Positions 4,573 to 36,479 are shown, numbered from the stretch's first letter. The stretch is 64,000 nt of DNA from Parcubacteria group bacterium (GCA_028286605.1 JAQBRE010000002.1:262011-326010), one strand, 5' to 3'. The notes: generated from the sequence alone by a model not told the origin. Made by a program: numbers and translations.

Positions 4573-4574
4573 TC

Positions 4575-6086: not shown

Positions 6087-6154
6087 TTGATGAATAGTGG
6101 AATTATGCCGTTTCTGCTAGACTGCCGACAGATTGAAATCAACGAGGTGCGGTA

Positions 6155-6598
6155 ATGGATATGTTCTCACTCGAAGTCCCGTTGAGCGTCTTGATGCTCA
6201 AGGTGCTCGTTTTTGGTCTGGTTGCGCTCCTTGGCCTCCAACTTAAAGATGCAGCCCAGCTGGGCAAGGATCTTCATGCAGACCGTACGCAAAGTGATCG
6301 CCTATACAAGATTCTGCTTCGGCGGAAGAAAACCTTAACGTTCTATATATTCTGCTCGATTATCTTCAGTATTTTGGCAATTGAGGCAACGGTGCAGGTT
6401 ACCGGCAGACGCGATGCATTTCCGACTCTGCTTCCATTCCATCTGGTTTTCGCATTCATATTCTTCGCTCTATTCGTCACTCTCTTGGTACTGAACGGCC
6501 ACCGGCATCCGAGACAGCATCGCAAGATTGCCATTATGTTCATTGTGTTCGGTATGGTGGCTCTCATAAGCGGTCTCTATATGCTCGTGAAGATGTAG
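6155..6598 (+). CDS. Hypothetical 4-TM membrane protein
   Basis: 147 aa ORF preceded by a GAGGTG Shine-Dalgarno sequence 8 nt upstream; four hydrophobic segments. Confidence 0.5.
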   Translation: MDMFSLEVPLSVLMLKVLVFGLVALLGLQLKDAAQLGKDLHADRTQSDRLYKILLRRKKTLTFYIFCSIIFSILAIEATVQVTGRRDAFPTLLPFHLVFAFIFFALFVTLLVLNGHRHPRQHRKIAIMFIVFGMVALISGLYMLVKM

Positions 6599-6660
6599 AC
6601 AATGAGGAACCCCACTCGCGCATGCGTGAGTGGGGCCTCTTTCTATCTTTCGTTCAATCG

Positions 6661-7044
6661 TTATTCGCCCACCTCGTGCAGATCTTCCTGTATCGTGCTG
6701 CGCAAGTCGTTGAACTCCTTCGTGAGGCGATCAAGCTTCTCGTCGGCACTATCTTCGATATCGATGAAATCATTACGTGCAGGATCGATCGAGCGGATGA
6801 TCTCATCCAGCTTCAGATGAATTGCATGCGCATCGCGATTCTGTGTGTTCTGAATCAGGAACACCATGAGGAACGTAAGGATCGTCGTACCGGTATTAAT
6901 CACCAGCTGCCAGGTGTTGGAGAACTGGAAGATCGGTCCGGTAAGTGCCCAGACGACCACCAGCAATACGGCAACGATGAAACCGAACGGCGAACCTGTC
7001 GCCTTGCTCGTCCACTGGGCTGTCTTGCGGAACAGATTCTTCAT
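6661..7044 (-). CDS. Low-affinity iron permease-like small membrane protein (PF04120-like)
   Basis: 127 aa; the motif WQLVINTGTTILTFLMVFLIQNTQNRD resembles the Iron_permease family signature from memory; it has an acidic C-terminal tail. Confidence 0.5.
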   Translation of the reverse strand: MKNLFRKTAQWTSKATGSPFGFIVAVLLVVVWALTGPIFQFSNTWQLVINTGTTILTFLMVFLIQNTQNRDAHAIHLKLDEIIRSIDPARNDFIDIEDSADEKLDRLTKEFNDLRSTIQEDLHEVGE

Positions 7045-12443: not shown

Positions 12444-12704
12444 ATGATACATCCGATAGATATTCATATTGGCAAACGTCTTCGCAGGCGCCGGAAGTTT
12501 TTGGGACATTCGCTCAAGCAGGTCGGCCTTTCTTGCGGCGTTACCTATCATGTAATCAATAACTATGAGTCCGGAAGGAATCCGATGAGAGCGTCATTCC
12601 TTTTGCCGCTCTCCCAAGCTCTTGATGTTCCGGTGGGATACTTTTTCGAAGGGTTCGAAGAAACGCGGCCTGTCGAAAGCGAGCACAACACCGCAGCGAA
12701 CTAA
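12444..12704 (+). CDS. XRE-family HTH transcriptional regulator (small)
   Basis: 86 aa; RBS AAAGGAG 8 nt upstream; HTH-like segment LKQVGLSCGVTYHVINNYESG. Confidence 0.55.
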   Translation: MIHPIDIHIGKRLRRRRKFLGHSLKQVGLSCGVTYHVINNYESGRNPMRASFLLPLSQALDVPVGYFFEGFEETRPVESEHNTAAN

Positions 12705-12734
12705 TTCTGCACCACGTCGTGCCTTTCTGGCACC

Positions 12735-12763
12735 AAAGCCGGCGACCTTGTCGCCGGCTTTTT
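12735..12763. terminator. Intrinsic terminator
   Basis: AAAGCCGGCGAC-CTT-GTCGCCGGCTTTTT. Confidence 0.7.
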
Positions 12764-12857
12764 GCATGGTAATTAAGCATGCTTTTGCACGTCTTATCCT
12801 TTTAGACGCTCCCACGCTGATATACTGTATGCATTACCTCGCCGTAACCTCGAACCT

Positions 12858-13118
12858 ATGTCACAGATGTCCAAGAATGAAAAAATCACGATCGCCGTTT
12901 TCATCGTGCTCGTGCTGGCCGGCCTCGGCTATTACTGGTATCAGCATGATATGACTCCGAAGACTGCGGCTACCTTCGTGAATACACCCGCAACGCTTCC
13001 TTCTGGTTCGAGTACTTCTGATCAGAGCCTTCAGCAGGACACTGCTGCAATCGATAGCCAAATGAGCGGACTCTCAAGCGATCAGGCAACCGTTAATTCC
13101 TCAGTGAGCGCTAACTAA
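12858..13118 (+). CDS. Small N-terminally anchored secreted protein, Ser/Thr-rich (hypothetical)
   Basis: 86 aa; TM ITIAVFIVLVLAGLGYYW followed by a low-complexity S/T/Q tail. Confidence 0.4.
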   Translation: MSQMSKNEKITIAVFIVLVLAGLGYYWYQHDMTPKTAATFVNTPATLPSGSSTSDQSLQQDTAAIDSQMSGLSSDQATVNSSVSAN

Positions 13119-13128
13119 TTATTTACGT

Positions 13129-14124
13129 ATGAAAAATATTCCAACCTCCGCACTCGCGCTTTCGCTTCTCATCGCAGCAGCGCCATTCGCTGCATTCGCT
13201 GAAGACTCCGGTGCTTCCGTAAACGTTTCTGCAAACGCGCAGGTGCAAAGCAGCACGAGCGGCTCTCATGATGGTGCTTCTGACAACAGTGGTCCAGACA
13301 AGGGCGGAATCATCAAGATCAGCGATGATCTGAAAGGGCTCTTCGGTGCAGGCGCGGTTCGCGCTCATGTAGAGGCGAATCATGAGGCTTCGACCAGTGA
13401 TATTCATGCGAACCTTCATGCCGGCGCGAACGCATCAACGACCCCTCGCGCTCCACACCCTACGGCTAATGGCGCACAGGCACGTGCGCGCGGCGATGCA
13501 GAAGTAGATGGCCGCATCGCGAACCTCACTAAGATGATCGCACGCCTTGGTGATGCGCAGCGTCTTTCGTCTGACGCGAAAGCATCACTCACTGCGTCAC
13601 TGAATGCGCAGATCGCGTCACTTACGAATCTTAAGACAGACATAGACACCGGCGCGAGCACCACGCTTAAGACGGATGACCAGTCTATAACGAAAGATTT
13701 CCGCGTGTATGCGCTTGTTATGCCGCAGGCAGCGATCAATGCCGCATCAGACCGCATCATGACTCTCGTTGCAGATATGCAGGCGCTCTCTGCGAAGATC
13801 AGTACCCGTATCAGCGCGGCAAGCGCGGCCGGAGCTGATGTAACGGCAGCAACCGCAGCGCATACGGACTTCGATGCTAAGGTAGCAGACGCAAGCGTGC
13901 AGGCACAGGCAGCAGTATCTGAAGTCGTGAATCTCAAGCCGGATAATGGCGATACGACTATTCTTGCTTCGAATACCGCATCGCTCAAGGATGCGAAGAC
14001 CAAGATCGACGCTGCGCAGGCAGACCTCAAAGCCGCTCGTGCAGACCTCGCCACCATCCTTAAGGGCGTAAAAGGAAAGGGAGAAGTGAAGGCAGGGGCA
14101 AGCGCTTCTACCACCGCGCAGTAG
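13129..14124 (+). CDS. Secreted Ala-rich coiled-coil protein (hypothetical)
   Basis: Signal peptide MKNIPTSALALSLLIAAAPFAAFA; 331 aa of A/S/T/D-rich heptad-like sequence. Confidence 0.55.
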   Translation: MKNIPTSALALSLLIAAAPFAAFAEDSGASVNVSANAQVQSSTSGSHDGASDNSGPDKGGIIKISDDLKGLFGAGAVRAHVEANHEASTSDIHANLHAGANASTTPRAPHPTANGAQARARGDAEVDGRIANLTKMIARLGDAQRLSSDAKASLTASLNAQIASLTNLKTDIDTGASTTLKTDDQSITKDFRVYALVMPQAAINAASDRIMTLVADMQALSAKISTRISAASAAGADVTAATAAHTDFDAKVADASVQAQAAVSEVVNLKPDNGDTTILASNTASLKDAKTKIDAAQADLKAARADLATILKGVKGKGEVKAGASASTTAQ

Positions 14125-14158
14125 GATACACTATACCTATACAAACCTAATCACTCGT

Positions 14159-14578
14159 ATGGTACCTATTAATCTTATGGCTGTGCTCGTAGCCGCTATC
14201 GTCACCATGGTGCTCGGCTATATCTGGTTCGGTCCGCTCTTCGGCAAGCTCTGGATGCGTCTCAATGGCTTCACTATGGAAACGATGTCTGCGCAGAAGG
14301 GCAAGATGGCGCAGATGTATATCATCATGTTCATCGGTGCTCTCGTAACGGCATATGTGCTCGCAGGCGTTCACATCTTCGCTTCAACGTATCTAAATAT
14401 CGGCGGCATCGATTCAGGTATCCTCGCAGGCTTCATGAGCTGGCTCGGCTTCACTGCGCCGGTAACCGTGAACTACACGCTTACCACGCAGAAGTCGTGG
14501 AAGCTCTGGGCTGTCAATTCCGGGTACTATCTCGTCTCCTTCGTGGTGATGGGTATTATCCTCGCGGTCTGGGCGTAG
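14159..14578 (+). CDS. DUF1761-like membrane protein
   Basis: N-terminus INLMAVLVAAIVTMVLGYIWFGPLFGKLWM matches the DUF1761 pattern from memory; 4 TM helices. Confidence 0.55.
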   Translation: MVPINLMAVLVAAIVTMVLGYIWFGPLFGKLWMRLNGFTMETMSAQKGKMAQMYIIMFIGALVTAYVLAGVHIFASTYLNIGGIDSGILAGFMSWLGFTAPVTVNYTLTTQKSWKLWAVNSGYYLVSFVVMGIILAVWA

Positions 14579-14584
14579 GCATCT

Positions 14585-14616
14585 AAAAACGAGCCCTTGA
14601 ACTAGGGCTCGTTTTT
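14585..14616. terminator. Intrinsic terminator
   Basis: AAAAACGAGCCC-TTGAACTA-GGGCTCGTTTTT. Confidence 0.75.
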
Positions 14617-14658
14617 AGGTATTGTGTTTGAGCACGACGGCTTCGGCCGTTCTGCTAT

Positions 14659-14729
14659 TGCGGGATCGTCTAATGGTAGGACTGCGGTTTCTGGTACCGT
14701 ATATCTAGGTTCGAGTCCTAGTCCCGCAG
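14659..14729 (+). tRNA. tRNA-Gln (anticodon CTG)
   Basis: U1-A72 acceptor TGCGGGA/TCCCGCA with discriminator G; anticodon stem GCGGT/ACCGT and loop TTCTGGT; T-arm CTAGG-TTCGAGT-CCTAG; no CCA encoded. Confidence 0.8.
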
Positions 14730-15084
14730 CTCGCTAACTGTAGTCATCAAAGTTATATAAAAAGAAAACCGCCCTCTCGTCGAAACGAAAGGGTTGTTTT
14801 CGTTTCGCCTATGGGCGGTCATTTAGATTTCCGAATCTCAAAAGATTCACAAAGGTGCAGCTCACGAAGCAATACTCTTGAGTACTTAGAAAATATGTTC
14901 CAGTACTTGTGAACTGAATATAGTTATTACGACTTTTCGGCAGCCCCCAATTCGGTCGTTGCATAATTGGGATCGTCAATTCAGTCACGTCACCTACTCG
15001 TGCAGGCTCGTTTGACGGGTCATGCGCCGATGCTTCCCCTCATATCTACAACATTCAATTCTCCTTGTGTTGTTAAGGCTTCAC

Positions 15085-15459
15085 TCAATCACTGAAGGAC
15101 AGATCATAGAGTGTATCTTCAAACCATTTGAAGATTTGTGGCCATAATGCTTGATGAGGACAGCTCGGGCTAGTCCACCACCGACGAACGCTGGTGATGT
15201 TATACCCCATGCTTTCAGCAAGCATACGATCCCAACCGGGCTTGGTAGAAAAGATCTCCACCAGCATCCGCTTGAAACCTTCCCGACGCAACGGGTTTTC
15301 CTTACTGACTTCCATCTTCGTGCTTTGCACGAGAAGACGAAGGCTTTCATGAACCTGCCGTCGAGAGTTTCTGAGACGTTCGATTGCTTCATCGAACGGA
15401 ATAGGCTCTTTCAAAAAGATCACCTCCTTTCGTGCCAAGTAGGCTGTGTATTTATACAC
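15085..15459 (-). CDS. Hypothetical protein with C-terminal HTH-like segment
   Basis: 124 aa; MLAESMGYNITSVRRWW resembles a DNA-binding HTH; divergent from the GNAT gene across repeat copy A. Confidence 0.4.
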   Translation of the reverse strand: MYKYTAYLARKEVIFLKEPIPFDEAIERLRNSRRQVHESLRLLVQSTKMEVSKENPLRREGFKRMLVEIFSTKPGWDRMLAESMGYNITSVRRWWTSPSCPHQALWPQIFKWFEDTLYDLSFSD

Positions 15460-15471
15460 TTGTAATATATT

Positions 15472-15530
15472 TTGTCAAAGATGGCCTAAACAAAGGATTT
15501 CGGTTCGAATAACGTTCCAGACTGCCAGCT
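15472..15530 (+). repeat. Cassette-boundary direct repeat, copy A (TTGTCAAA...TTTCGGTTCGAATAACGTTCCAGACTGCCAGCT)
   Basis: Aligned by eye with copies B, C and D; ends about 15 nt before the GNAT start. Confidence 0.7.
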
Positions 15531-15544
15531 AGTGATATTCTAGG

Positions 15545-15994
15545 GTGATGATAATTCGAGAACTTCGACAGGAAGATATCTCTGCAGTTGAGGAGATCTT
15601 TGATCTGTACTGGTCAGGAGAATTTCGCGCCCATCTTTCCGAACGTCTGCACTCATCTGATTTGCAATGGACTGTTGCAGAAGAGAACACTGAAATAGTC
15701 GGAGTTGCAGCATCTCGTGAAGCGCCAACAAGAATGCGAAAATACGCAAAGACGGACAGGGTAGTGGAATTTTATATCGCTGCAGCAAAATATAAAGGAA
15801 GGGGTATCGGTACTGCTCTGCGGAATGCTCGGATTGAACAGGCACGAAAAGACGACTTTAAGGAAGTGGTATTTTTCAGTGGCGATACGCATCAAGACTC
15901 GTGGAACTTCCATGACGCCTCAGAGTTTAGGAGGGTTGGAGAGGAGATCGCTCCTGACGGGGAAACTGGCATGATTTGGCTAATGGATCTTTAA
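15545..15994 (+). CDS. GNAT family N-acetyltransferase
   Basis: 149 aa; acetyl-CoA binding-like region AAKYKGRGIGTALRNA; GTG-ATG at the start (ATG at 15548 is likelier). Confidence 0.7.
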   Translation: MMIIRELRQEDISAVEEIFDLYWSGEFRAHLSERLHSSDLQWTVAEENTEIVGVAASREAPTRMRKYAKTDRVVEFYIAAAKYKGRGIGTALRNARIEQARKDDFKEVVFFSGDTHQDSWNFHDASEFRRVGEEIAPDGETGMIWLMDL

Positions 15995-15999
15995 GGAAA

Positions 16000-16029
16000 G
16001 TTCTCGCGTCGTATCAAACCGCCAGCTCG
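16000..16029 (+). repeat. Degenerate copy E of the boundary repeat (GTTCTCGCGTCGTATCAAACCGCCAGCTCG)
   Basis: Shares the GTTC..CGTC....C.GCCAGCTCG core with copies B and D; sits 6 nt after the GNAT stop. Confidence 0.5.
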
Positions 16030-16102
16030 TTAATTTTAGTCATTGTAAATAAAAGAAACCGCCCGAACCGTAAGGAACGGGCAGTTCCTTTTGGTTGGAC
16101 GG

Positions 16103-16519
16103 TTAGCGAAATTCGCGAAGCCATTCGCACGCGTTCTTGACGACTTCGGGCAACATGCCGGGCTTAAACCACTTGCCCTGGTATCGTTGATGATCTCTGA
16201 GCAGGAAATTACCCACTTCTCCTTCGTAGGAAAAGAAGCAGCCGGCGGTCATAAGCATTTTGCCTTTCACGCCGCCATAGGCGGGATAGTACCCGTCCTG
16301 CTGCGTCACGTCGAAGACGTGAACCGCATAGGCATTGTGCGCAGACGGGCCCTGCGAGAGGTCGAGTGCGCAGCTATCGACACGCACGACGCATTTACCG
16401 CGAAGTCTCGAGTGACGCTCAAGCTCACGCTCAAGCATCTCCTTGATGGTGTTGGCGCAGGAAAGCGCCATACGCGTGTCGGGTTTCTCCAAGACGGTAG
16501 TCGACATGACAATCTCCAA
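16103..16519 (-). CDS. Hypothetical protein
   Basis: 138 aa ORF on the opposite strand inside the cassette region; no motif recognised. Confidence 0.4.
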   Translation of the reverse strand: MEIVMSTTVLEKPDTRMALSCANTIKEMLERELERHSRLRGKCVVRVDSCALDLSQGPSAHNAYAVHVFDVTQQDGYYPAYGGVKGKMLMTAGCFFSYEGEVGNFLLRDHQRYQGKWFKPGMLPEVVKNACEWLREFR

Positions 16520-16572
16520 TCAGTGTGAGGCTAGGGCTGTTCTGGGAAGAATCATGGTATATTTAATGCTAT

Positions 16573-16631
16573 TTGTCAAATACAACCTAGACACTCAATT
16601 TCGGTTCGAATATCGTCCCAGACGGCCAGCT
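16573..16631 (+). repeat. Cassette-boundary direct repeat, copy B
   Basis: TTGTCAAATACAACCTAGACACTCAATTTCGGTTCGAATATCGTCCCAGACGGCCAGCT; a 34-nt core identical to copy C. Confidence 0.75.
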
Positions 16632-16728
16632 CGACACTTTCAATAAATAATTGTATATTCATTTCGATCTCAATGGTGAGGTTATGAACCATAGCCGACT
16701 CCCACGAGGATAGGCGACTGGAGGAACG

Positions 16729-17283
16729 ATGTACATTCGAGAAGCTAAAAAACTTGCACAGGCGCTTGCGCCGATCCTGAAGGACCGCGTGCTCGTGCGA
16801 TATGCCGTACAGGGGTGGGGTAAAGTTAGTTACACTGCGGAGCTTGTCGTGGTGGCGACGATCGGTGGCGAGGATTTTCTTTACCAAGCGCAAATCACAT
16901 TGCTGGTTGTGCGCGGTATTACGCAGATCGAGTCGGATTTTAGGCTGCTGAGCCTCAAGACCCAGCCTGACATTCTCGAAAGCGTCACTGAAAGGTGGCT
17001 TAGAAGGAGTGCTGACGACTGGTGTCATGGCGAGCAATTCATGGGCGCCTATGAAATCCTTCGTGACGGACAGCTCTATACTTCGGTCAAGCTTCCGCCA
17101 TTTGATCCCCGTTGGCATCTTCTGGTTGGAGTAATCCTGAGTGAGCTTGGGGCGCAGCAGGGCAAGGTGAACCCGCGAAATGCGGTAGACACCGGCAGCA
17201 TCAATCTAATGAACAAGCGTTATTCTGCCTTCGCTGCCGAAAGTATTTCTGGCTGGGCTCATCAGACTTTTTCGGCGCACTAG
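16729..17283 (+). CDS. Hypothetical protein
   Basis: 184 aa ORF following copy B; no motif recognised. Confidence 0.5.
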   Translation: MYIREAKKLAQALAPILKDRVLVRYAVQGWGKVSYTAELVVVATIGGEDFLYQAQITLLVVRGITQIESDFRLLSLKTQPDILESVTERWLRRSADDWCHGEQFMGAYEILRDGQLYTSVKLPPFDPRWHLLVGVILSELGAQQGKVNPRNAVDTGSINLMNKRYSAFAAESISGWAHQTFSAH

Positions 17284-17347
17284 GCGTATTCCTATCGATA
17301 TAGTTCAGAGCCACTCGAAAGGGTGGCTCTTCAATTTGTATGTTATA

Positions 17348-17396
17348 TGCATTTAAATAAGCATTTCGGTTCGAATATCGTCCCAGACGGCCAGCT
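17348..17396 (+). repeat. Cassette-boundary direct repeat, copy C (left half diverged)
   Basis: ATTTCGGTTCGAATATCGTCCCAGACGGCCAGCT identical to copy B; ends 25 nt before the kinase ATG. Confidence 0.75.
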
Positions 17397-17421
17397 TCTG
17401 TTTTCATGCTCTAATAGTGCT

Positions 17422-18003
17422 ATGCGTGAACATAAAGGAAAGCGACTCTGCATAAGTGGTATTCCGACCGCAGGCAAATCAACTCTAACTAAGAAGCTTG
17501 CTGAAACCGTAAACGGGATCAGTGTATTTCTTGATGATTTTCGAGAAGAACTTGCCTCAGACGAACGCTATATAAAGTGGATCAACTTTTATATCGATCA
17601 GGATCTTGAAACATATTACACAACCACAACTCCTGAGGACGAATGGAAGAATCTGGTCGCTCAATCAGAAGCAATGTGGCCAGCATTTCTAGAACGAATT
17701 AATTCGTATGCAGATGAGGAACGATCAGTCATATTTGAATGCGTAAACTTGCTGCCACATCTTATAAAGAGAGATTTAGGCTTTCCCTGTGTAGTACTTA
17801 TTGGTTCTTCCTACGATGAAACATTGGAGCGTAATAAACGAGAGCCTCGATGGGGAGGCGCAGAACGTGAGCTTGAATTGAACTCGAAGAGCTTCTTTTA
17901 CGTTGAGCGTCCGCATTATCTCGAAGAAGCCGAAAAGTATGGGTATCCTGTATTCGAGACATCTGAAGAAGCTTTTCCATTAGCCTTAGATCTTCTGAAG
18001 TAA
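17422..18003 (+). CDS. P-loop NTPase / nucleotide-kinase-like protein
   Basis: Walker A GIPTAGKST at the N-terminus (MREHKGKRLCISGIPTAGKSTLTKKLAE). The track ORF 17323.. runs through repeat copy C, so ATG 17422 is the likelier start. Confidence 0.6.
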   Translation: MREHKGKRLCISGIPTAGKSTLTKKLAETVNGISVFLDDFREELASDERYIKWINFYIDQDLETYYTTTTPEDEWKNLVAQSEAMWPAFLERINSYADEERSVIFECVNLLPHLIKRDLGFPCVVLIGSSYDETLERNKREPRWGGAERELELNSKSFFYVERPHYLEEAEKYGYPVFETSEEAFPLALDLLK

Positions 18004-18033
18004 GGTTCCCACGTCGTACCAAACTCCCATCTG
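18004..18033 (+). repeat. Degenerate copy F of the boundary repeat (GGTTCCCACGTCGTACCAAACTCCCATCTG)
   Basis: Similar to copy E (GTTCyCrCGTCGTAyCAAAC); starts 1 nt after the kinase stop. Confidence 0.45.
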
Positions 18034-18108
18034 AGGGCGATAGATAAGCATTTTTCTATCTTAGTAATAGAAAACCCGCCGAGACGGAAGGTTTTCCATC
18101 TCAGCGGG

Positions 18109-18666
18109 CTAGCGAACGCAGAGAAACGCGATGAAGCTGTTGAGCGCGATAGCGCCCCAGGGCACGGCCGTGTGGGCCACGTCCTGTTTCTTGGCTCCAT
18201 AGATCGAGAGCGCGCAGCTGACGATCGTGACGAGCCAGAGCCATGTCGTCGAAGACTGCGGCGTGTGCCAGTAGTCCACAATGAGCGGCACGGTCGCGAC
18301 AATGAAGGCGATCACGAAGGCGAAGATCGCAATCTCCGCACTGAGTGTGAGCCACAGCACTACGGCAATGAAGCAGAGCACGAGTGATGCCGATTCCACG
18401 ATGCCCCAGTGCCACGGACTCCGTCCCGCCAAGATGGCGATCAGGATAAGGCATGCAGCTGAGAGCCAGGCGATCTGTAGCAGCGGCAACTTGTTGCCGC
18501 CCCTGATGACCAGGAACAGGCCGAGCGCATCGAGCAGGACAGTCATCCCCCAGGTCGCCACGTTCTGCGGCACTCCCGTTTGATAAATAGTCCAGGCGAA
18601 GTAGGTCGGGGCAGCGAATCCAAGGATGCCGCTTGCCCAGTTGGCGTATTGCTTAGAGCGGTCCAT
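18109..18666 (-). CDS. Hypothetical polytopic membrane protein
   Basis: 185 aa with about 6 hydrophobic helices. Confidence 0.5.
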   Translation of the reverse strand: MDRSKQYANWASGILGFAAPTYFAWTIYQTGVPQNVATWGMTVLLDALGLFLVIRGGNKLPLLQIAWLSAACLILIAILAGRSPWHWGIVESASLVLCFIAVVLWLTLSAEIAIFAFVIAFIVATVPLIVDYWHTPQSSTTWLWLVTIVSCALSIYGAKKQDVAHTAVPWGAIALNSFIAFLCVR

Positions 18667-18727
18667 CCGCGCCTCCTGAATTGTTGAAGATCACGCAACT
18701 GGATATATTTTAAAACTATACTAATCT

Positions 18728-18786
18728 CTTGTCAAACACGACCTAGACGCTCGATTGTAGTTCGGACATCGTCCCAGACGGCCAGC
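18728..18786 (+). repeat. Cassette-boundary direct repeat, copy D
   Basis: TTGTCAAACACGACCTAGACGCTCGATTGTAGTTCGGACATCGTCCCAGACGGCCAGCT. Confidence 0.7.
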
Positions 18787-18819
18787 TCGACGTACTTACG
18801 TATAAGTGGTATTCCAAGA

Positions 18820-19524
18820 GTGGAGCTACGGTTCCGTTCTTTTGCAATCGGAGAAATGACCATGGTTACGACCGGGTATGACACTGTCGCTATTATTTCA
18901 GGGAAGATTCGGATTGATCCAACAACCTTTACGCCCACCGAATGGAAAACTATTATTGATGCTGCCATCAAAGAACTTACGATTGGGTACCTGAGTAATC
19001 TTGAAACAATTGGCCAACTTTTGCTGCCTAAGCGAGCTAACGAAATTAGCACTGAATATAACATATTCAATTTGCTTCATGTTGAACGTTCGTTTGACGA
19101 AAGTATTATGCATCCTGATTTCTTGAATCTCGGCACTCTTGTTGAGTTGCCTGACTGGAGAAGTTGGCCAAAAGCGTCAGCGCACAGTGATAGGTATGCT
19201 GAACTTTGCGAAACTATACTTACACTCAGGCGAGGCAAGCACGGCAGCACACATTTGGTACAAGTGGATATCTTCTGGTACCTCGAGGAAAGCCAGGCGG
19301 AGAGGAGATTGCAAGCCAAGCTGATCGTTATGCGCAACATCGTTGAAATTGATAAGCTCTTTGAGTCGCTCGGAACCACTGCATACCTTCGTGGGAAAAG
19401 AGTACTTTGGCAGCTGTATTCAGCACAAAAATCCACTCTTGCAAATATGAATCAGCGCGCAGCCGCTGCGCAAGAGGCCGCACAAAAGCTGGAGTCTTAT
19501 CTCACTCGAGCAGACATACTTTAG
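18820..19524 (+). CDS. Hypothetical protein
   Basis: 234 aa; an alternative start at ATG 18856 is preceded by CGGAGAA; no motif recognised. Confidence 0.5.
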   Translation: MELRFRSFAIGEMTMVTTGYDTVAIISGKIRIDPTTFTPTEWKTIIDAAIKELTIGYLSNLETIGQLLLPKRANEISTEYNIFNLLHVERSFDESIMHPDFLNLGTLVELPDWRSWPKASAHSDRYAELCETILTLRRGKHGSTHLVQVDIFWYLEESQAERRLQAKLIVMRNIVEIDKLFESLGTTAYLRGKRVLWQLYSAQKSTLANMNQRAAAAQEAAQKLESYLTRADIL

Positions 19525-19528
19525 AAGT

Positions 19529-19556
19529 GGGGCCGCAGCTTGTCTGCGGCCTTTTC
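19529..19556. terminator. Intrinsic terminator
   Basis: GGCCGCAG-CTTGT-CTGCGGCC-TTTTCT. Confidence 0.7.
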
Positions 19557-19562
19557 TATTTT

Positions 19563-19584
19563 GGTTCCCATCAACACCATCTTG
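19563..19584 (+). repeat. Degenerate copy G of the boundary repeat (GGTTCCCATCAACACCATCTTG)
   Basis: Begins GGTTCCCA...CATCT like copy F. Confidence 0.35.
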
Positions 19585-19597
19585 TATACTTATATAT

Positions 19598-19909
19598 ATG
19601 GCCAAAACTATTTCTGGCGGCACGGTACATGATCTGCCAGCAGATGTACGAAAGGCGTTGAAAGCGGATCCTAAAGCTCTTGCGTTGTGGGAAGGTCTTA
19701 CGCCACTCGCACGTAATGAGTGGATTTGTTGGGCTATCTCCGTTAAGAAATCAGAAACGCGTCAGGAGCATATCGAACGAATATGCTCCGAGCTGAAAGA
19801 GGGAATGCGCCGCCCTTGCTGCTGGGTAGGTTGTATTCATCGGAAGGATAAATCATTAAGCCCTTCGCAAAAATACGTGCTTAGTAAACGGCCAAAAAGC
19901 AAGAAATAA
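19598..19909 (+). CDS. YdeI/OmpD-associated family protein (DUF1801-like)
   Basis: 103 aa; LPADVRKALKADPKALALWEGLTPLARNEWICWAISVKK is typical of this family. Confidence 0.6.
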   Translation: MAKTISGGTVHDLPADVRKALKADPKALALWEGLTPLARNEWICWAISVKKSETRQEHIERICSELKEGMRRPCCWVGCIHRKDKSLSPSQKYVLSKRPKSKK

Positions 19910-20062
19910 GAATCCTTAGTATCTAGATATAATTTCTCTATGGAAAGCGAATCCTATCTTCCGCTATATTACTGAGCGGCCGCAGATAAATACCTAAGCA
20001 TTCAGATAGTTTAAATGCAGTCTCAGGCGCCCGCCCGCTTGAGACTTGTTCGGTCTTCCTTT

Positions 20063-20539
20063 CTAACCCTGTCGTGCTGCGTCGATAGCGGCCACGTCAA
20101 TCTTCTGCATGGTCATCATCGCTTTGAACGCGCGCTCTGCTTCTGCGCCACCGATAGCAAATGCCTCAAGCAGCGTACGCGGTGTGATTTGCCATGAAAC
20201 TCCCCAGCGATCCTTGCACCATCCGCAGTCGCTTTCCACGCCGCCATTTCCAACGATCGCGTTCCAATAGCGATCCGTCTCTTCCTGGTCTTCCGTCGTG
20301 ATCTGAAAGGAAAATGCCTCACTTTGCTTAAACGTAGGGCCACCATTGAGACCGACGCAAGGGATTCCACAGACCGTGAACTCCACTGTCAGCGCGTCGC
20401 CCTTCTTTCCATCCGGAAACTCACCAGGCGCGTGAAAAACAGCGCCTACGGTACTATCGGGAAAAGTAGCTGCGTAAAACTTCGCTGCATCTTCCGCGTC
20501 CTTATTGAACCAGAGGCAAATTGTATTTTTCGATATCAT
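20063..20539 (-). CDS. VOC/PhnB-like protein (3-demethylubiquinone-9 3-methyltransferase-domain family)
   Basis: Start taken at the internal Met (MISKNTICLWF...; the track ORF extends to 20578). Glyoxalase-fold pattern typical of PhnB/YjdN. Confidence 0.6.
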   Translation of the reverse strand: MISKNTICLWFNKDAEDAAKFYAATFPDSTVGAVFHAPGEFPDGKKGDALTVEFTVCGIPCVGLNGGPTFKQSEAFSFQITTEDQEETDRYWNAIVGNGGVESDCGWCKDRWGVSWQITPRTLLEAFAIGGAEAERAFKAMMTMQKIDVAAIDAARQG

Positions 20540-20558
20540 AGGTATGTATGTTACACCC

Positions 20559-21029
20559 TTACGCAGAGAGGAACCCATTCAGCTTCTCGAGCTGCTGCGT
20601 GAAGCCCATCTCCATACCTTGAACTGCCATTCCCGCCTTAGGGCCAGTCTTAAGGATAGCCGCTTTAACTTCAACTTTAGTCTTGCCATCGCTTTCAGAA
20701 AGAGTGATCTCGGTCGTCTGATCGATCGTAGTCTCTTCTTTCATACCTTCTGTCCATGCCTGCGCGGTATACGAAAGCTGGGACTCTGGCTCAACAACAG
20801 TGAACTGCGCGAGCATCGGCCACTTCGTACCTTTATACGGACCCATCGCTTCGCCTGCTTCCATCACGATATGAAATGTTCCCCCGACGCGAAGATCAAC
20901 TTCGCATTCAGGAATGCTCACATTGTCCGGACCCCACCACTGCTTCAATTCTTCAGGATCAGTCCATGCCTTCCATACGCGCGAGAGGGAAGCGTCATAA
21001 AGATGCACGAGAGTAATTTCTTTTTCCAT
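20559..21029 (-). CDS. SRPBCC / AHSA1 (activator of Hsp90 ATPase homolog)-domain protein
   Basis: 156 aa; SRVWKAWTDPEELKQWWGP is an AHSA1-family signature; sits next to arsR, a common pairing. Confidence 0.7.
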   Translation of the reverse strand: MEKEITLVHLYDASLSRVWKAWTDPEELKQWWGPDNVSIPECEVDLRVGGTFHIVMEAGEAMGPYKGTKWPMLAQFTVVEPESQLSYTAQAWTEGMKEETTIDQTTEITLSESDGKTKVEVKAAILKTGPKAGMAVQGMEMGFTQQLEKLNGFLSA

Positions 21030-21033
21030 ATGT

Positions 21034-21360
21034 TTATTTTTTATCTTCTAAGAATGTTCCTAATCTATCCAGTCTTCCTTCCCACAGCGCTCGATACTGT
21101 TCCAGATATTTGTCTGCCTGCTGCAGGCCGCCGGGCGAAAGCTCGACGCGTTGTTCACGGCCACGCTTATGCTTGCGCACGAGATTAGCCCGTTCAAGAA
21201 CCTGTATGTGTTTCGAGACTGCTGCGAACGTGAGGTCGTATCGTTGTGCTAATTCTCCGACCGAGTAATCCTGACGACGCAGCCTACGAAGCAAGTCGCG
21301 CCGTGTCGGGTCGGCAAGAGAAGAAAATATGGTGTCGAGCGGACTAGTATATTCAACCAT
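21034..21360 (-). CDS. ArsR/SmtB family transcriptional regulator
   Basis: LADPTRRDLLRRLRRQDYSVGELAQRYDLTFAAVSKHIQVLERANLV is an ArsR-type HTH. Confidence 0.75.
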   Translation of the reverse strand: MVEYTSPLDTIFSSLADPTRRDLLRRLRRQDYSVGELAQRYDLTFAAVSKHIQVLERANLVRKHKRGREQRVELSPGGLQQADKYLEQYRALWEGRLDRLGTFLEDKK

Positions 21361-21465
21361 ATAGTTGAATGATAGTGCAGGTTGATAACTGTGTCAATAC
21401 GCTCAATTCGAAGAACTTTCGTAGTTGTCTTATTCAGGATTCTGATTCAGTGATATGGTACGCAG

Positions 21466-22152
21466 ATGATAGTCACTAAGGACTTGCAGGTAGATATGCG
21501 CGGCGAACCTCTCTTCGAGAAGGTTAATATCGTTATACGTGCGGGCGAGCGCATCGGCGTGCTTGGCCCGAAGGCGAGCGATGTGACGCTTTTCTTCCAT
21601 GTCCTCGTTGGTGAAGCAGAAACGGATGCGGGAAAGGTACTGACCGAAGGAGAACGTGTGGTGTATGTTGATCGTGATACGCTACTCGGCGGTGATGAAT
21701 CGCTTGCGCGCGTGATGCACGCGCGCCCTACCTTTCTTCTTATCGACGCCACGAATCTGACTGCGAGCGCTAACGACCTCGAGCGTGCGAAACGTTTTAT
21801 AGAAAGCTTCCGCGGAGGAATTCTTATCGCAACAGATACTGCGCTGCTTATGAATGCCGCAAAGACCACTCGCGTGTTTGAAATACGCCCTTCGACCAAA
21901 ACTATCACTTCCTATACCGGAAGCTACGCTGCTTACTTGATTGAGAAAGAGAAGAACGATGCGAAGGAACTGGCCGCCTATGAGAAGCAGCAGAAAGAAA
22001 AGCGAAGACTTGAGGATTGGCTTACGAACAAGCGCATAGAAGCGTCGAACGACCGCTCGCCTGAAAAGGGTGCGACCATCCGCACCAAAGCAAAATATTT
22101 GCAGCGCGAGATCCTTGATAAGGAAATACCGAAGCCGAGCCAGTCTGAATAA
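21466..22152 (+). CDS. Degenerate single-domain ABC-F-like protein (catalytic motifs lost)
   Basis: Aligns by eye to an ABC-F N-terminal NBD plus linker, but Walker A is GVLGPKASDV, the signature is LLGG, Walker B is LLIDATN (Glu replaced by Ala) and the H-loop His is replaced by Thr. C-terminal charged coiled-coil. Confidence 0.45.
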   Translation: MIVTKDLQVDMRGEPLFEKVNIVIRAGERIGVLGPKASDVTLFFHVLVGEAETDAGKVLTEGERVVYVDRDTLLGGDESLARVMHARPTFLLIDATNLTASANDLERAKRFIESFRGGILIATDTALLMNAAKTTRVFEIRPSTKTITSYTGSYAAYLIEKEKNDAKELAAYEKQQKEKRRLEDWLTNKRIEASNDRSPEKGATIRTKAKYLQREILDKEIPKPSQSE

Positions 22153-22195
22153 ACTCACAGGAACTACATGCGCTAAAAAGGTATACTGGCCGCAT

Positions 22196-22921
22196 ATGAA
22201 AAAAGAAATAACTTTGAACGGCGTACCCGTATATCACACCTTTCCCGACGACGGCCAGAAGCATCCAGGCCTCATCGTTATCGAAGAGATCTGGGGCGTA
22301 ACCGACCACATAAAGGATGTGGCTGGTCGCTTTGCTGCGCAGGGCTATTCGGTTCTTTCGCCGGAACTCCTGCATGGCATGCCCTTTCTTGGAAAGGTAG
22401 ACCAGAGCGTGCTTGCAGACATGCAAGACCCCGAGAAGCGAGACGAAGCGCAGAAGAAACTGCGAACCGCCATGGCACCTGTTCAGGCGCCGGAATTCGC
22501 AGAAGGAGCCATCGCCGTACTGAAGGCCTGCGTTGATTATCTGATGGCAGACGAGAACGTAGATGGAAACGTCGGCGTCGTCGGATTCTGCTTCGGCGGT
22601 TCATACAGCTTCAAGCTGGCTTCAACCGATTCGCGCATCAAAGCAACGGTGCCATTCTATGGTCATGCGCCTTCAGCAGAGGAAGTAGAAACGATCACGG
22701 GCCCGGTCCTCGCGTTCTATGGAACGGAAGATGCCGCGCTCATGGAATCGCTTCCGAAGCTCAAAGAAGACATGGAGAAAGAAGGGAAGGAGTTTGAGGC
22801 TGTGGTCTTTGAAAACACAGGCCACGCATTCTTCAACGATACGAATGCACTTATGTATCGCCCAGGCCCTGCCGCAGAAGCATGGGATAAGACGCTTGCG
22901 TTCCTCGCGCATAATCTATAA
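22196..22921 (+). CDS. Dienelactone hydrolase family protein
   Basis: alpha/beta hydrolase with a GFCFGG nucleophile elbow; start at ATG 22196 in the track ORF frame. Confidence 0.7.
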   Translation: MKKEITLNGVPVYHTFPDDGQKHPGLIVIEEIWGVTDHIKDVAGRFAAQGYSVLSPELLHGMPFLGKVDQSVLADMQDPEKRDEAQKKLRTAMAPVQAPEFAEGAIAVLKACVDYLMADENVDGNVGVVGFCFGGSYSFKLASTDSRIKATVPFYGHAPSAEEVETITGPVLAFYGTEDAALMESLPKLKEDMEKEGKEFEAVVFENTGHAFFNDTNALMYRPGPAAEAWDKTLAFLAHNL

Positions 22922-22929
22922 TTACTGAT

Positions 22930-23382
22930 ATGAAATTCCTTACCGCATTCCTGGTTGCCCTTATTGGTTCAGTCGTCGTGAACGTTATTATCGTTTCTGT
23001 TCTTGGTCCGATGGTTACTAATCCTGCGATGCCGCTCATGGCGTTGACCATCATGCCTGTTGCTATGTTCACCGCCATCGGTGCAATTGGCGCGACGATC
23101 GTGTACGCGATCATGCGCGCAACGATGATGCGTCCGAACAAAGCATTCATCTGGCTCTCGGTCGTTGTATTCATCGTTTCGTGCTACCCCGATTACATGG
23201 TTATTGGTGCCGTCACTGGTCCGTTCGCTGGCGGTACGCTTGCTGATGCGCTCGTACTTATGCTCATGCACCTTGCTGCCGCGATCATCATTGTTTGGGC
23301 ACTCGTGAAGCTTTGGGGTAGCAGGACGGTGCTCACAAAAATACCAGGCATGCCAACGATGCCGGTTAATCCTCAGGCGTAA
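22930..23382 (+). CDS. Hypothetical 4-TM membrane protein
   Basis: 150 aa, hydrophobic throughout. Confidence 0.5.
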   Translation: MKFLTAFLVALIGSVVVNVIIVSVLGPMVTNPAMPLMALTIMPVAMFTAIGAIGATIVYAIMRATMMRPNKAFIWLSVVVFIVSCYPDYMVIGAVTGPFAGGTLADALVLMLMHLAAAIIIVWALVKLWGSRTVLTKIPGMPTMPVNPQA

Positions 23383-23403
23383 TAGCTTAACCAGAACTCT
23401 TCT

Positions 23404-23784
23404 ATGCTTACCGATTCTCACGCATACAGCGGTTTCTCCGTGAACGATATTGAAAAAGCAAACGAGTTCTATGGTACGACGCTTGGGCTTGATGTGGCAA
23501 AAATGCCTGAGGGTCTGAAGATCAATCTGCCAGGCGGCGGCATGACCTTCATTTATTTGAAGCCGGATCATGTGCCTGCTACGTTCACCATCCTTAACTT
23601 CGAGGTGAAGGATATCGATGCGACGGCAGATGAACTGGTGAAAGCAGGCGTAGTGCTTGAGCGGTATCCGAGTATGCATCAGGACGAGAAGGGAATCGCC
23701 CGCGGCAAAGCCGCGGGCATGGGGCCGGACATCGCGTGGTTCAAGGACCCTGCCGGCAACATTCTTTCAATAACTCATTCGTAA
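23404..23784 (+). CDS. Glyoxalase/bleomycin-resistance (VOC) family protein
   Basis: 126 aa with a VOC-fold pattern (FSVNDIEKANEFYGTTLGL...). Confidence 0.65.
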   Translation: MLTDSHAYSGFSVNDIEKANEFYGTTLGLDVAKMPEGLKINLPGGGMTFIYLKPDHVPATFTILNFEVKDIDATADELVKAGVVLERYPSMHQDEKGIARGKAAGMGPDIAWFKDPAGNILSITHS

Positions 23785-23787
23785 CCG

Positions 23788-24324
23788 ATGACTGATTCGC
23801 AGAGCGACCGCACCGAAGGGTATCATCTGTTTCTTGAGCCTTCAGGTGCGACGGCTGAATCATTGAAGGCAAGTATCGCAGCGCTTGCAGAAGAGTTCGG
23901 CGGACCGACATTTCCCCCACACGTTACGTTGTTGAGTGGTATTGCTACAGAGGAAGAAGAGGTGCTTATAGAGAAAACGGAACAGTTAGCTGCGCTAACT
24001 GTTCCGTTTTCTCTTACGCTTGGCGAAGCGGGAACCGAAGACGCATACTTCCGTGCACTCTATCTGAAGGTTCAGGAGTCAGAGGCGCTTGTTCTATTTC
24101 ATGCGCATGCGAGCGAACTCTTTTCCATGCAAGATGCATCTACGTTCATGCCGCACCTAAGCCTGCTCTATGGGAATTATCCGGAGGAACGCAAAAGAGC
24201 CGCGTTAGCGGCTCTTTTGGTGCCCGAAGGCAGTTTCTCGATTGATCGTATCAGTCTGTATCGCACGGAAGGCACGGTGGCCGACTGGCAGAAAGTAGCG
24301 GATCTATCCCTCGGAACGTACTGA
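23788..24324 (+). CDS. 2H phosphoesterase superfamily protein (LigT/2'-5' RNA ligase-like)
   Basis: Two H-x-T/S-x motifs: PHVTLLSG and PHLSLLYG. Confidence 0.7.
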   Translation: MTDSQSDRTEGYHLFLEPSGATAESLKASIAALAEEFGGPTFPPHVTLLSGIATEEEEVLIEKTEQLAALTVPFSLTLGEAGTEDAYFRALYLKVQESEALVLFHAHASELFSMQDASTFMPHLSLLYGNYPEERKRAALAALLVPEGSFSIDRISLYRTEGTVADWQKVADLSLGTY

Positions 24325-35137: not shown

Positions 35138-35239
35138 ACAAGGCGCCCCACACAGTAATTGTGAGGGGCGCTGACTGTTTATCTCTGTTCGGAATCGTCT
35201 CAGATAGTCAGCAACACAAGAGGTGTATATTTAAACAAT

Positions 35240-36111: not shown

Positions 36112-36114
36112 ACT

Positions 36115-36363: not shown

Positions 36364-36446
36364 CTCCTCATGCGTCAGGAGTATACTTGTGCTATGTCCG
36401 TGGGGCATCGGCCCCTTATCCAACATTGTAGTTGATGTCGGACACC

Positions 36447-36479
36447 AAAATCTCCCGAGAAATCGGGAGATTTTGTTTT
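36447..36479. terminator. Bidirectional intrinsic terminator
   Basis: AAAATCTCCCGA-GAAA-TCGGGAGATTTT. Confidence 0.75.

Follow-up and report, generated by a model that had tools for sequence, protein, structure and literature searches.

A repeated sequence that follows a tRNA-Gln gene in the 64 kb stretch of DNA analysed here (the window) probably constitutes the recombination site of mobile one-gene cassettes that are inserted directly behind this tRNA gene, a reading to which we assign a probability of about 0.7. The arrangement looks like an undescribed integron-like gene-capture system. The analyses presented below show arrays of such units, in which the sites have a constant orientation and which are anchored at tRNA-Gln, together with precise insertion polymorphism and the sharing of a cassette between arrays.

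A series of single-gene units starts at tRNA-Gln

The features of the array are given in Table 1. The window contains six copies of the repeat and one remnant, all of them on the + strand, and each terminates a single-gene unit. Four copies are strong (R1 to R4) and two are variants (R1b and R3b). The series of units begins immediately 3′ of the tRNA-Gln gene, whose 3′ end (...GTCCCGCAGC) delimits the array proximally and has a role like that of attI or attB. Shuffled sequences gave an expectation of 0 chance matches for the full repeat and of 0.03 for its 16-base skeleton; the repeat family is far beyond chance. A previous reading based on the sequence only had quoted the tRNA-Gln 3′ segment (GGTTCGAGTCCTAGTCCCGCAG, followed by the trailer CTCGC) and the repeat core (GGTTCGAATATCGTCCCAGACGGCCAG at 16603, followed by CTCGAC), and both quotations are correct.

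The proteins encoded by cassettes 1 and 4 match Pfam families Acetyltransf_1 (5.7e-10) and AAA_18 (1.1e-4), respectively, and their stop codons are separated from sites R1b and R3b by 5 and 1 nt. The gene of cassette 0 has no match in Pfam, NCBIfam or PADLOC. Homologues of the cassette 3 and cassette 6 genes were found elsewhere in the same context, the former adjoining a site in locus L033 and the latter as a cassette between two sites in L012. The variant sites also recur: the core of R1b (CGTCGTACCA) is present in L024 and L144, with near variants (TTCGTACCA) in L121 and L135, and the counterpart of R3b in L024 is GTTCCCACGTCGTACCAGACGGCCAGC.

Table 1. Features of the tRNA-Gln-anchored array, in coordinates of the window.
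Feature	Position	Strand	Content or basis
tRNA-Gln(CTG)	14659..14730	+	ARAGORN; Rfam tRNA, 57 bits
Cassette 0	14731..15529		3′ end is site R1; ORF list
Terminator hairpin, cassette 0	14772-14793		terminator scan
Orphan 124-aa gene, cassette 0	15085-15459	-
TTGACA promoter box of cassette 0 gene	15472-15477		read on - strand
Site R1	15503..15529	+	GTTCGAATAACGTTCCAGACTGCCAGC; family profile E=1.6e-9
Cassette 1	15530..16026		GNAT acetyltransferase gene 15545-15994 (+)
Site R1b	16000..16026	+	GTTCTCGCGTCGTATCAAACCGCCAGC; variant, 'CGTCGTA' subfamily
Cassette 2	16027..16630		orphan gene 16103-16519 (-); 3′ end is site R2
Promoter-like TTGACA-17-CATGAT, cassette 2	16579-16551
Site R2	16604..16630	+	GTTCGAATATCGTCCCAGACGGCCAGC; family profile E=1.1e-11; tRNA-Gln profile E=0.2
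Cassette 3	16631..17395		orphan gene 16729-17283 (+), hairpin, site R3
Hairpin GAGCCACTCGAAAGGGTGGCTC, cassette 3	about 17302-17330		read by eye
Site R3	17369..17395	+	GTTCGAATATCGTCCCAGACGGCCAGC, same letters as R2
Cassette 4	17396..18031		P-loop kinase-like gene 17422-18003 (+)
Site R3b	18005..18031	+	GTTCCCACGTCGTACCAAACTCCCATC; variant
Cassette 5	18032..18786		membrane protein gene 18109-18666 (-); 3′ end is site R4
Terminator, cassette 5	18110-18073		terminator scan
Promoter TTGACA-17-TAAAAT, cassette 5	18735-18707
Site R4	18760..18786	+	GTTCGGACATCGTCCCAGACGGCCAGC
Cassette 6	18787..19584		orphan gene 18820/18856-19524 (+)
Terminator, cassette 6	19529-19553
Possible decayed site, cassette 6	19563-19582		GGTTCCCATCAACACCATCT; by eye only

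The site is conserved across Patescibacteria

A scan of a genome collection detected the site, 33 bases long (A.AAARGTTCNAAYATCGTCCCAGACNGCCAGC), in 40 genome stretches, 36 of which come from named Patescibacteria lineages and four from unclassified 'bacterium' records. Together with the window, these loci contain 149 copies in 41 sequences, and the copies within one sequence always lie on the same strand. The 87 intervals between sites have a median spacing of 582 bp, with units of a uniform size of about 0.3-1.4 kb, and 74 of them contain one dominant ORF, which is co-oriented in 50 cases and reversed in 24 (32%). The stop codon is located at a median distance of 11 nt 5′ of the next site. 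In 12 of these 40 motif-selected loci the first site is preceded, at a distance of one cassette (about 340-1320 bp), by a tRNA-Gln gene on the same strand, and arrays that do not contain a full tRNA gene begin one cassette length past an authentic 3′ piece of tRNA-Gln (such as TAGGTTCGATCCCTAGTCTCCCAGC).

The information content of the site remains high across positions -5 to +27 and drops abruptly at +28, which defines a sharp boundary, and the sequence is conserved almost base-for-base between classes of Patescibacteria. No conservation was found 3′ of the junction, and a conserved right half-site and dyad symmetry are absent. For tyrosine as well as serine recombinases it is atypical that the sequence to the right of the crossover is unconserved, and this observation runs counter to the model. 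DNA folding of six copies or strands predicted no secondary structure (z-scores -1.1 to +1.6), and only the tRNA itself matched Rfam 15 at E<=1 within positions 13000-24000.

Resemblance of the site to the 3′ end of tRNA-Gln

The sequence-only reading had also proposed that the repeat resembles the 3′ end of tRNA-Gln. This holds at the level of the family, where the likeness is specific to tRNA-Gln, but it is marginal inside the window alone. The alignment that had been put forward, which places GTCCC on GTCCC and requires two gaps, is not the best one. The best alignment is 3′-anchored and consists of GGTTCGA, a 5-nt insertion (ATATC) and then GTCCCAGACGGCCAGC versus GTCCTAGTCCCGCAGC, with 11/16 identical positions. 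When scores of R2/R3 in global alignment to the tRNA 3′ segment were compared with those of shuffled sequences, the similarity was significant for full shuffles (P<0.001) and marginal for shuffles that kept GGTTCGA (P=0.026); the latter type of shuffle gave P=0.08 for R1 and P=0.036 for R4. Moreover, 2 of 15 other CPR tRNA ends equalled the score of tRNA-Gln against the window repeats, and a profile of the four strong repeats missed the tRNA of the window even at E<=100. GGTTCGA is a trait of the subfamily to which the window sites belong and not of the whole family, whose consensus, GGTTCCAAC, is not T-loop-like. That the window repeats are only marginally similar to their own tRNA is a further counterpoint to the model.

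When the last 16 nt of the family site were compared with 60 distinct CPR tRNA-Gln 3′ ends, on average 11.1 of the 15 specified positions matched, versus a mean of 7.25 and a maximum of 9 for 20 other CPR tRNAs, and random sequence reaches at least 11 matches to this 16-mer with P=0.002. As judged from these comparisons, the 3′ part of the site is specifically tRNA-Gln-like.

Probable insertion of cassettes precisely behind an intact tRNA gene

In an independent sample of 117 loci picked solely by their tRNA-Gln gene, site matches numbered 0 in 347 kb of upstream sequence and 47 in 350 kb of downstream sequence, and the opposite (minus) strand of these loci contained none. In comparisons between relatives, much of the material for which is metagenome assembly in which conserved repeats, including tRNA genes, can yield chimeric joins, related contigs are 75-100% identical through the tRNA gene and their homology ends at +1 or +2 after it. 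The sequence of L056 equals that of L070 plus a precise 772-bp insertion, and the flanks of 111 and 119 bp are 100% identical. The insert lies between ...GGCAGC of the tRNA and AACGAGTTTTAG, and its end is the site (...GTTCCAACATCGTCCCAGACAGCCAGC). L066, the closest relative of the window, is syntenic with it up to the tRNA gene and has nothing in common with it afterwards. A comparison of empty and occupied sites, which had been suggested as a check, places the insertion exactly at an intact tRNA in both pairs.

One downstream unit is also found at different distances from the tRNA gene. This unit, ACGAGAGTT(T)AAAG..., adjoins the tRNA directly in L061, L078 and L092, and sits behind one cassette in L076 and behind five in L144. 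Finally, L035 and L037 have one cassette in common (87% identical at the amino acid level and about 80% at the nucleotide level); the homology runs from site to site and the flanks are unrelated.

According to the model that we propose, every cassette would bear the asymmetric 33-bp site at its 3′ end, and this site would derive from, or imitate, the tRNA-Gln gene's 3′ end. It would open with a T-loop-like part, followed by 5 additional bases, by sequence resembling the T-stem 3′ strand and by an acceptor-like strand that includes G73 and C74. Site-specific recombination would put cassettes exactly behind the terminal ...CAGC of tRNA-Gln and leave the tRNA intact. Older cassettes would be displaced distally, resulting in an array of the type tRNA, cassette-site, cassette-site. 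Strand exchange would take place at or within the shared CAGC, with the conserved information located entirely 5′ of the exchange point. Insertion would presumably involve a circular cassette intermediate, and the recombinase would act in trans.

The idea, put first in the sequence-only reading, that the tandem islets arose by repeated insertion is retained as far as successive units at the tRNA-Gln end and att-like sites are concerned, but the repeats are not degenerating copies. Neither are they regenerated attL/attR copies of the tRNA end, since they differ from the host end (11/16, and 5 nt longer), are near-identical between classes of Patescibacteria and delimit units without an integrase. 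The window lacks attL/attR repeats that reproduce the 3′ portion of the host tRNA gene; host-identical fragments occur only in other loci. The other possibility raised in that reading, in which the repeats are recombination sites for cassette capture and have a core derived from a tRNA, provides the best fit.

Search for the recombinase

A search for a P4-type integrase near other copies of the repeat had been suggested. No P4- or lambda-like tyrosine recombinase was found in 1.07 Mb of sequence (the window plus 157 loci) when the six-frame translation was searched with phmmer using lambda Int and P4 Int as queries (E<=10); a positive control with a large serine recombinase (LSR) worked. A catalytic-box search did not yield a tyrosine recombinase match either, and no IntI tyrosine recombinase was found beside the array. 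Neither the window nor any of the 40 array-bearing 8-kb blocks contains a recombinase gene, including LSR genes (Resolvase + Recombinase + Zn_ribbon_recom), which speaks against the model, and the cassette units contain no integrase or integrase remnants.

LSR genes do abut the tRNA-Gln end in L075, L090, L092, L115 and L147, where the elements located exactly at this end consist of an LSR and Rep. The LSR family is our best, though tentative, lead for the cassette-moving enzyme, because LSR elements are found at this very tRNA-Gln end in related loci and because attP half-sites that are ∼5 bp longer than attB half-sites would match the 28 nt of the site versus the 23 nt of the tRNA end. Known LSR attP half-sites are indeed about 5 bp longer than attB half-sites, and a left arm that is 5 nt longer in the site than in the tRNA is what is expected for P-type versus B-type half-sites.

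The very short identity between partner sites is another likeness to LSR attP/attB systems and to the SCC-type tandem arrays at rlmH. LSR sites, however, are 40-50 bp long with an imperfect dyad and a central dinucleotide, whereas conservation is confined here to -5 to +27; LSR genes are missing from the window and the array-bearing blocks, and further integration does not normally take place at an LSR attL. Xer-dependent modules (pdif modules, IMEX) are similarly small, bounded by short sites and moved by a recombinase encoded elsewhere. Unlike the 28-bp Xer site, the site described here has no 11-6-11 dyad (11-bp inverted arms with a 6-bp spacer) or dif-like sequence; its copies are all direct repeats instead of alternating inverted ones, and the anchor is a tRNA gene and not the replication terminus.

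Alternative explanations

We consider it unlikely that the arrays result from tandem accretion of tRNA-integrating elements, such that the islets would be decayed integrase-bearing elements and the repeats displaced, mutating copies of the tRNA-Gln 3′ end (attR). In other loci, authentic tRNA-Gln 3′ fragments that were displaced but retain an intact T-arm are present at array starts and within arrays, the LSR and Rep elements occupy the tRNA-Gln end in five loci, and the proximal-insertion pattern fits the published tRNA-seed model (10.1101/2020.12.28.424599). As in the tycheposons of Prochlorococcus described there and in P4-type islands, the seed is a tRNA gene that receives insertions at its 3′ end and remains intact; tRNA-adjacent entry displaces older units, and tRNA-end-like repeats punctuate the island. 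The window repeats, however, match their own tRNA end at only 11/16 positions with 5 additional nt, and sites from other classes of Patescibacteria resemble them more than the neighbouring tRNA does. Twenty-seven near-invariant positions across the phylum would not be expected under decay; the units are uniform in size, have one ORF and carry the site 1-11 nt past the stop codon, and no integrase remnants were found. In contrast to tRNA-seeded islands, moreover, each unit consists of one gene and lacks both an integrase and a replication module, the repeat at the boundary is a conserved phylum-wide variant and not a copy of the host tRNA, and crossover takes place in the terminal bases (CAGC) instead of in the T-loop or the anticodon loop.

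We also consider it unlikely that the 33-nt element serves primarily another function, for example as a binding site of a conserved protein or as a transcript 3′-end or processing signal mimicking the tRNA end, and that the arrays arise and exchange units by homologous recombination between the repeats after natural transformation. The element does lie close behind the stop codons of co-oriented genes, its conservation resembles that of a functional motif, and a stretch of 33 identical bp might allow a degree of homologous exchange; natural competence is assumed for Patescibacteria. Its orientation, however, is fixed with respect to the tRNA but varies with respect to the genes, which are reversed in 24 of the 74 cassettes; no structure or Rfam match is associated with it, and it is absent outside arrays in the 64 kb window. 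In addition, the tRNA-cassette junctions are exact even though they have only CAGC in common with the site, an identity that is too short for homologous recombination.

A true integron or CALIN, with attC repeats recombined by an IntI encoded elsewhere, is very improbable: the mostly single-ORF cassettes, the site just past the stop codon and the cargo (orphans, GNAT, a small kinase) are typical of integrons, but neither strand contains an imperfect palindrome or foldable hairpin, an inverted site partner is missing (149 copies and 47 tRNA-selected matches, one strand per sequence), the sequence itself and not merely a structure is conserved, and no tyrosine recombinase was found. For the same reason attC identity was rejected for the window repeats, attC sites being imperfect R''-L''...L'-R' palindromes and the site copies being unfoldable and without inverted copies.

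The preferred reading, recombination sites of mobile cassettes behind tRNA-Gln, has several traits in common with integrons: ordered arrays of small, mostly one-ORF mobile cassettes with mostly orphan cargo, a site at the cassette 3′ end directly past the stop codon, entry at a fixed platform-proximal site, and conserved information only 5′ of the crossover. It differs from them in that the site is a linear conserved 33-bp sequence instead of a folded palindrome, the platform is the tRNA-Gln 3′ end instead of attI, there is neither an adjacent integrase nor a Pc promoter, and the system was found here only in Patescibacteria. One third of the cassettes are reversed and have their own promoters and terminators, so a strict integron-like expression logic does not apply.

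Implications

Patescibacteria are episymbionts with tiny genomes and are believed to rely strongly on acquired functions; the ways in which they gain and reshuffle genes are not well understood. We give even odds to the broader proposal that they own a phylum-wide gene-capture platform, a functional analogue of the integron, in which the tRNA-Gln 3′ end is the acceptor and a linear tRNA-Gln-derived 33-bp sequence is the cassette site, and which is served by a recombinase other than IntI and allows single genes to be exchanged between distant CPR lineages. That recombinase could be an LSR acting in trans on P-type versus B-type half-sites, or belong to a class not yet linked to cassettes. One route by which genes flow across the phylum would be explained by a conserved, sequence-defined cassette site that docks at a fixed position of the chromosome, and the 33-nt site is a simple search key for the accessory gene pool of Patescibacteria in metagenomes. 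The tRNA-Gln end and the site could also serve genetic tools as a natural landing pad, in organisms whose manipulation is just becoming feasible. In a wider sense, the integron-like solution of stacking single-gene cassettes at one site would have arisen more than once, with different site chemistry.

A gene cassette array behind tRNA-Gln in the window

The repeats noticed by the sequence-only reading are real. Downstream of the tRNA-Gln gene of the window, which has housekeeping genes upstream of it, lies an array of cassettes stacked one behind the other, each closed by an asymmetric repeat of 33 bases that we call the site (see the table). A 16-base skeleton derived from the six window copies had no further match in the window at up to two mismatches, the number expected from shuffles being 0.03. 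The array consists of seven intervals with one gene each, which are, in order, an orphan (-), a GNAT acetyltransferase (+), an orphan (-), an orphan (+), a P-loop kinase-like gene (+), a membrane protein (-) and an orphan (+). PADLOC and NCBIfam searches of this cargo yielded nothing that explains the system.

Coordinates of features in the window
Feature	Position	Strand	Remark
tRNA-Gln(CTG)	14659-14730	+	start of array
Four near-identical copies of GTTCGAATATCGTCCCAGACGGCCAGC	starts 15503, 16604, 17369, 18760	+	downstream of tRNA-Gln
Two variant copies of the site	starts 16000, 18005	+	directly 3' of stop codons
Probable site remnant	19563-19582		
Promoter of a reversed gene, TTGACA-17-TAAAAT	18735-18707		
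HTH_3-type regulator gene and orphan	12444-14124		upstream of tRNA
Degenerate site copy GTTCGGAATCGTCTCAGATAGTCAGC	35184-35212		profile E=0.04; 3' of a terminator
Small genes after the degenerate site	35240-36864		

Other identities of the repeats were weighed and rejected. By eye, the motif was considered as a promoter, sigma-54, ECF or dif element, and these readings were dropped: the boxes do not match and dyad symmetry is absent. Folding of the repeats as DNA gave no structure on either strand, and an attC identity was therefore rejected. In an Rfam scan of positions 13000-24000 (E<=1) the tRNA alone was matched, and the repeats fell into no family. Three copies have an extension, TTGTCAAA...CCTAGAC, that lies outside the site proper and corresponds to the -35 region of promoters belonging to the reversed cassettes themselves; one such promoter is listed in the table.

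Upstream of the tRNA, a regulator gene of the HTH_3 type and a gene for a secreted-looking orphan of 331 aa lie between CTP synthase and DUF1761. The matching interval of L066 is about 640 bp long versus about 1.8 kb in the window, so that both genes appear to be absent from L066; this region appears to be another small insertion. The degenerate site copy further downstream is followed by an Ocnus-like gene, an orphan, a GIY-YIG gene and a reversed orphan, and GC content falls there. A homologue of the Ocnus-like gene is located within the array of locus L015, and one of the reversed orphan in L004, a locus with one site copy. The whole region may be a second, decayed array.

Distribution of the site and geometry of the arrays

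The site occurs across the phylum. An exact scan with GTTCNNNNNNCGTYCCAGACNGCCAGCT over 185,579 species, each represented by one genome, returned 40 stretches, 36 of them from named Patescibacteria (CPR) lineages and four from unclassified 'bacterium' records. The lineages include Parcubacteria, Paceibacteria, Saccharibacteria and Kaiser-, Adler- and Nomurabacteria. With a profile built from the scan copies, 149 copies were detected in the window and the 40 loci together, confined to a single strand within every sequence. Intervals from site to site (n=87) had a median length of 582 bp (interquartile range 440-720 bp), and 74 of them contained one dominant ORF, co-oriented in 50 cases and reversed in 24. 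The stop codon of co-oriented ORFs precedes the next site by a median of 11 nt, which assigns the site to the 3' end of every unit. The conserved block spans positions -5 to +27 (A.AAARGTTCNAAYATCGTCCCAGACNGCCAGC), with an abrupt loss of conservation at +28; conservation within this block is partly circular, since the copies were selected with the profile, but its sharp edges are not. A viral-contig scan for the site gave zero matches, and thus no evidence for a phage-borne attP.

In the arrays of L147, L150 and L106, which belong to one lineage, the repeated unit runs about 60 nt past the site, the added part being a leader, TGTAATAATCCACCCCTTTTGGGGTG..., that consists of a terminator and then an A+T-rich stretch. 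This leader also follows the tRNA itself in L150, which indicates that some cassette 5' ends are conserved as well.

Arrays are anchored at tRNA-Gln

In 12 of the 40 blocks the first site is preceded, on the same strand, by a tRNA-Gln gene about 340-1320 bp upstream, a distance of one cassette length. Where a block has no full tRNA, a search with a tRNA-Gln profile detected a genuine 3' fragment consisting of T-arm and acceptor strand, e.g. TAGGTTCGATCCCTAGTCTCCCAGC (L002, L029, L016, L034, L040, L032, L005, L021 and L038), and in most such loci this fragment is located one cassette length ahead of the first site. An independent set, 117 metagenome loci picked solely by the tRNA-Gln(CTG) anticodon arm, showed the link as well: 0 site matches were present in 347 kb upstream and 47 in 350 kb downstream, with zero on the opposite strand. 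The link of site arrays to tRNA-Gln is therefore real. Occupancy is variable, as 13 of the 52 tRNA-selected loci having at least 2 kb downstream contained a site within 2 kb.

About 224 to 188 nt upstream of tRNA-Gln, several loci (L043, L047, L050, L052, L061, L078, L092 and others) have a conserved piece, TGCCCGATCGTCTAATGGAAAGAAATCG, that resembles the first 23-28 nt of tRNA-Gln. ARAGORN makes no tRNA call for it; the piece might represent a second tRNA-Gln-like gene, interrupted or degenerate.

Insertion at the tRNA end

Where two contigs have 75-100% identity through the tRNA, their homology breaks off at +1 or +2 past it (e.g. L046/L126, L075/L077 and L063/L072). Between L056 and L070, identity is 100% in the 111 bp that end at the tRNA and again in the next 119 bp of L070, and L056 contains 772 extra bp between ...GGCAGC and AACGAGTTTTAG, an insert that ends in GTTCCAACATCGTCCCAGACAGCCAGC. 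L066, the closest relative of the window (about 70% nucleotide identity over RF2, FtsEX and CTP synthase), keeps synteny up to the tRNA and has nothing in common with the window beyond it. In addition, L061, L078 and L092 have a unit, ACGAGAGTT(T)AAAG..., directly against the tRNA, and this unit comes after one cassette in L076 and after five in L144. Finally, the cassette common to L035 (Saccharibacteria) and L037 (87% amino acid identity) is homologous only between the point just past one site and the end of the following site. Together, these results place the exchange point at ...CAGC|; CAGC is the only stretch always common to tRNA end and site.

Most comparative loci are metagenome assemblies, in which conserved repeats can give chimeric joins. 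The difference between L056 and L070 is hard to explain that way, because both flanks are identical. No excised cassette form was seen.

Non-coding units of about 170 nt are located at +146 to +200 after tRNA-Gln in L052, L056, L078, L121, L133 and others. They end in an exact copy of the last ~20 nt of the host tRNA, and ahead of this copy lies a hairpin whose changes are compensatory (GAAGCT-GTA-AGCTTC versus GAACTC-GTA-GAGTTC). At the start of related units in L061 and L092 there are a terminator and a copy of the 5' acceptor strand of the tRNA. These units have a tRNA-like look, and they stack as cassettes do.

Likeness of the site to the tRNA-Gln end

The sequence-only reading had taken the repeats for copies of the tRNA-Gln 3' end. 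Tested within the window alone, this likeness is only marginal. A profile of four window repeats did not recover the tRNA end when run against the window. The pairwise score of copies R2 and R3 against the tRNA 3' segment exceeds that of full shuffles, but reaches only P=0.026 when shuffles keep GGTTCGA, and 2 of 15 other CPR tRNA ends score equal to tRNA-Gln. The best alignment also has another register than the one proposed: GGTTCGA, a 5-nt insertion and an ungapped 3'-anchored 16-mer with 11/16 matches. At the level of the family the likeness is clear. Compared with 60 distinct CPR tRNA-Gln ends, the last 16 nt of the site agree on average at 11.1 of 15 positions, versus a mean of 7.25 (maximum 9) for 20 other tRNAs and a random-sequence expectation of P(>=11) = 0.002. 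The GGTTCGA T-loop look is confined to the window's subfamily, the family consensus being GGTTCCAAC. The main sequence-only reading is right in outline and wrong in detail: an att-like site tied to the tRNA-Gln end and serial insertion are retained from it, and decaying tRNA copies are not.

Several site copies in L017 (Adlerbacteria, positions 3454-6701) end in GGGCAGC rather than GCCAGC, which matches the end of its own tRNA-Gln, TCGGGCAGC. The overlap region may be matched to the host tRNA, or exchange may occur a few bases upstream of the end.

Candidate recombinases

The P4-type integrase that the sequence-only reading had proposed to look for was not found: phmmer searches with lambda Int and P4 Int near the arrays gave no hit, and neither did a tyrosine-recombinase regular expression. 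Pfam detected no recombinase among array-flanking genes or among 110 large ORFs of the 40 loci, and the window and array blocks encode no recombinase gene. In five tRNA-selected loci (L075, L090, L092, L115 and L147), genes for large serine recombinases (LSRs; Resolvase, Recombinase and Zn ribbon domains) abut the tRNA-Gln end. A degenerate site follows the LSR element in L147 and L115, and in L147 an array comes after this degenerate site, with the same continuation as in L150. Rolling-circle Rep genes adjoin the LSR genes in L147 (Viral_Rep plus S3 helicase), L092 (Phage_CRI/G2P) and L090 (a similar Rep, by its FTIHNY motif). The LSR-bearing elements of the five loci are small and integrated, 0-6 kb after the tRNA, and the LSR C-terminus (..PDRDSNPD*) is encoded on the strand opposite to the tRNA T-arm.

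At 28 nt, the site is 5 nt longer than the tRNA arm (23 nt), which would equal the offset that separates P-type from B-type half-sites of LSRs. The absence of a conserved right half-site argues against a canonical LSR reaction. We therefore regard an LSR only as a candidate for the enzyme that moves the cassettes.

Comparison with known systems

Like integrons, the arrays have single-gene cassettes, a 3' site and proximal insertion, but they are without foldable attC and without IntI. tRNA-seeded additive islands such as tycheposons work in a like manner (10.1101/2020.12.28.424599), the differences being that the repeats here are not identical to the host tRNA and that the units lack an integrase. 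The system thus fails the defining tests of both integrons and tRNA-seeded islands. In the searchable literature, an incomplete corpus, no description of such arrays in CPR bacteria was found, and the tycheposon preprint is the nearest analogue found. The best-supported explanation is the one that the sequence-only reading had offered as its alternative, a cassette-capture system with a tRNA-derived core.
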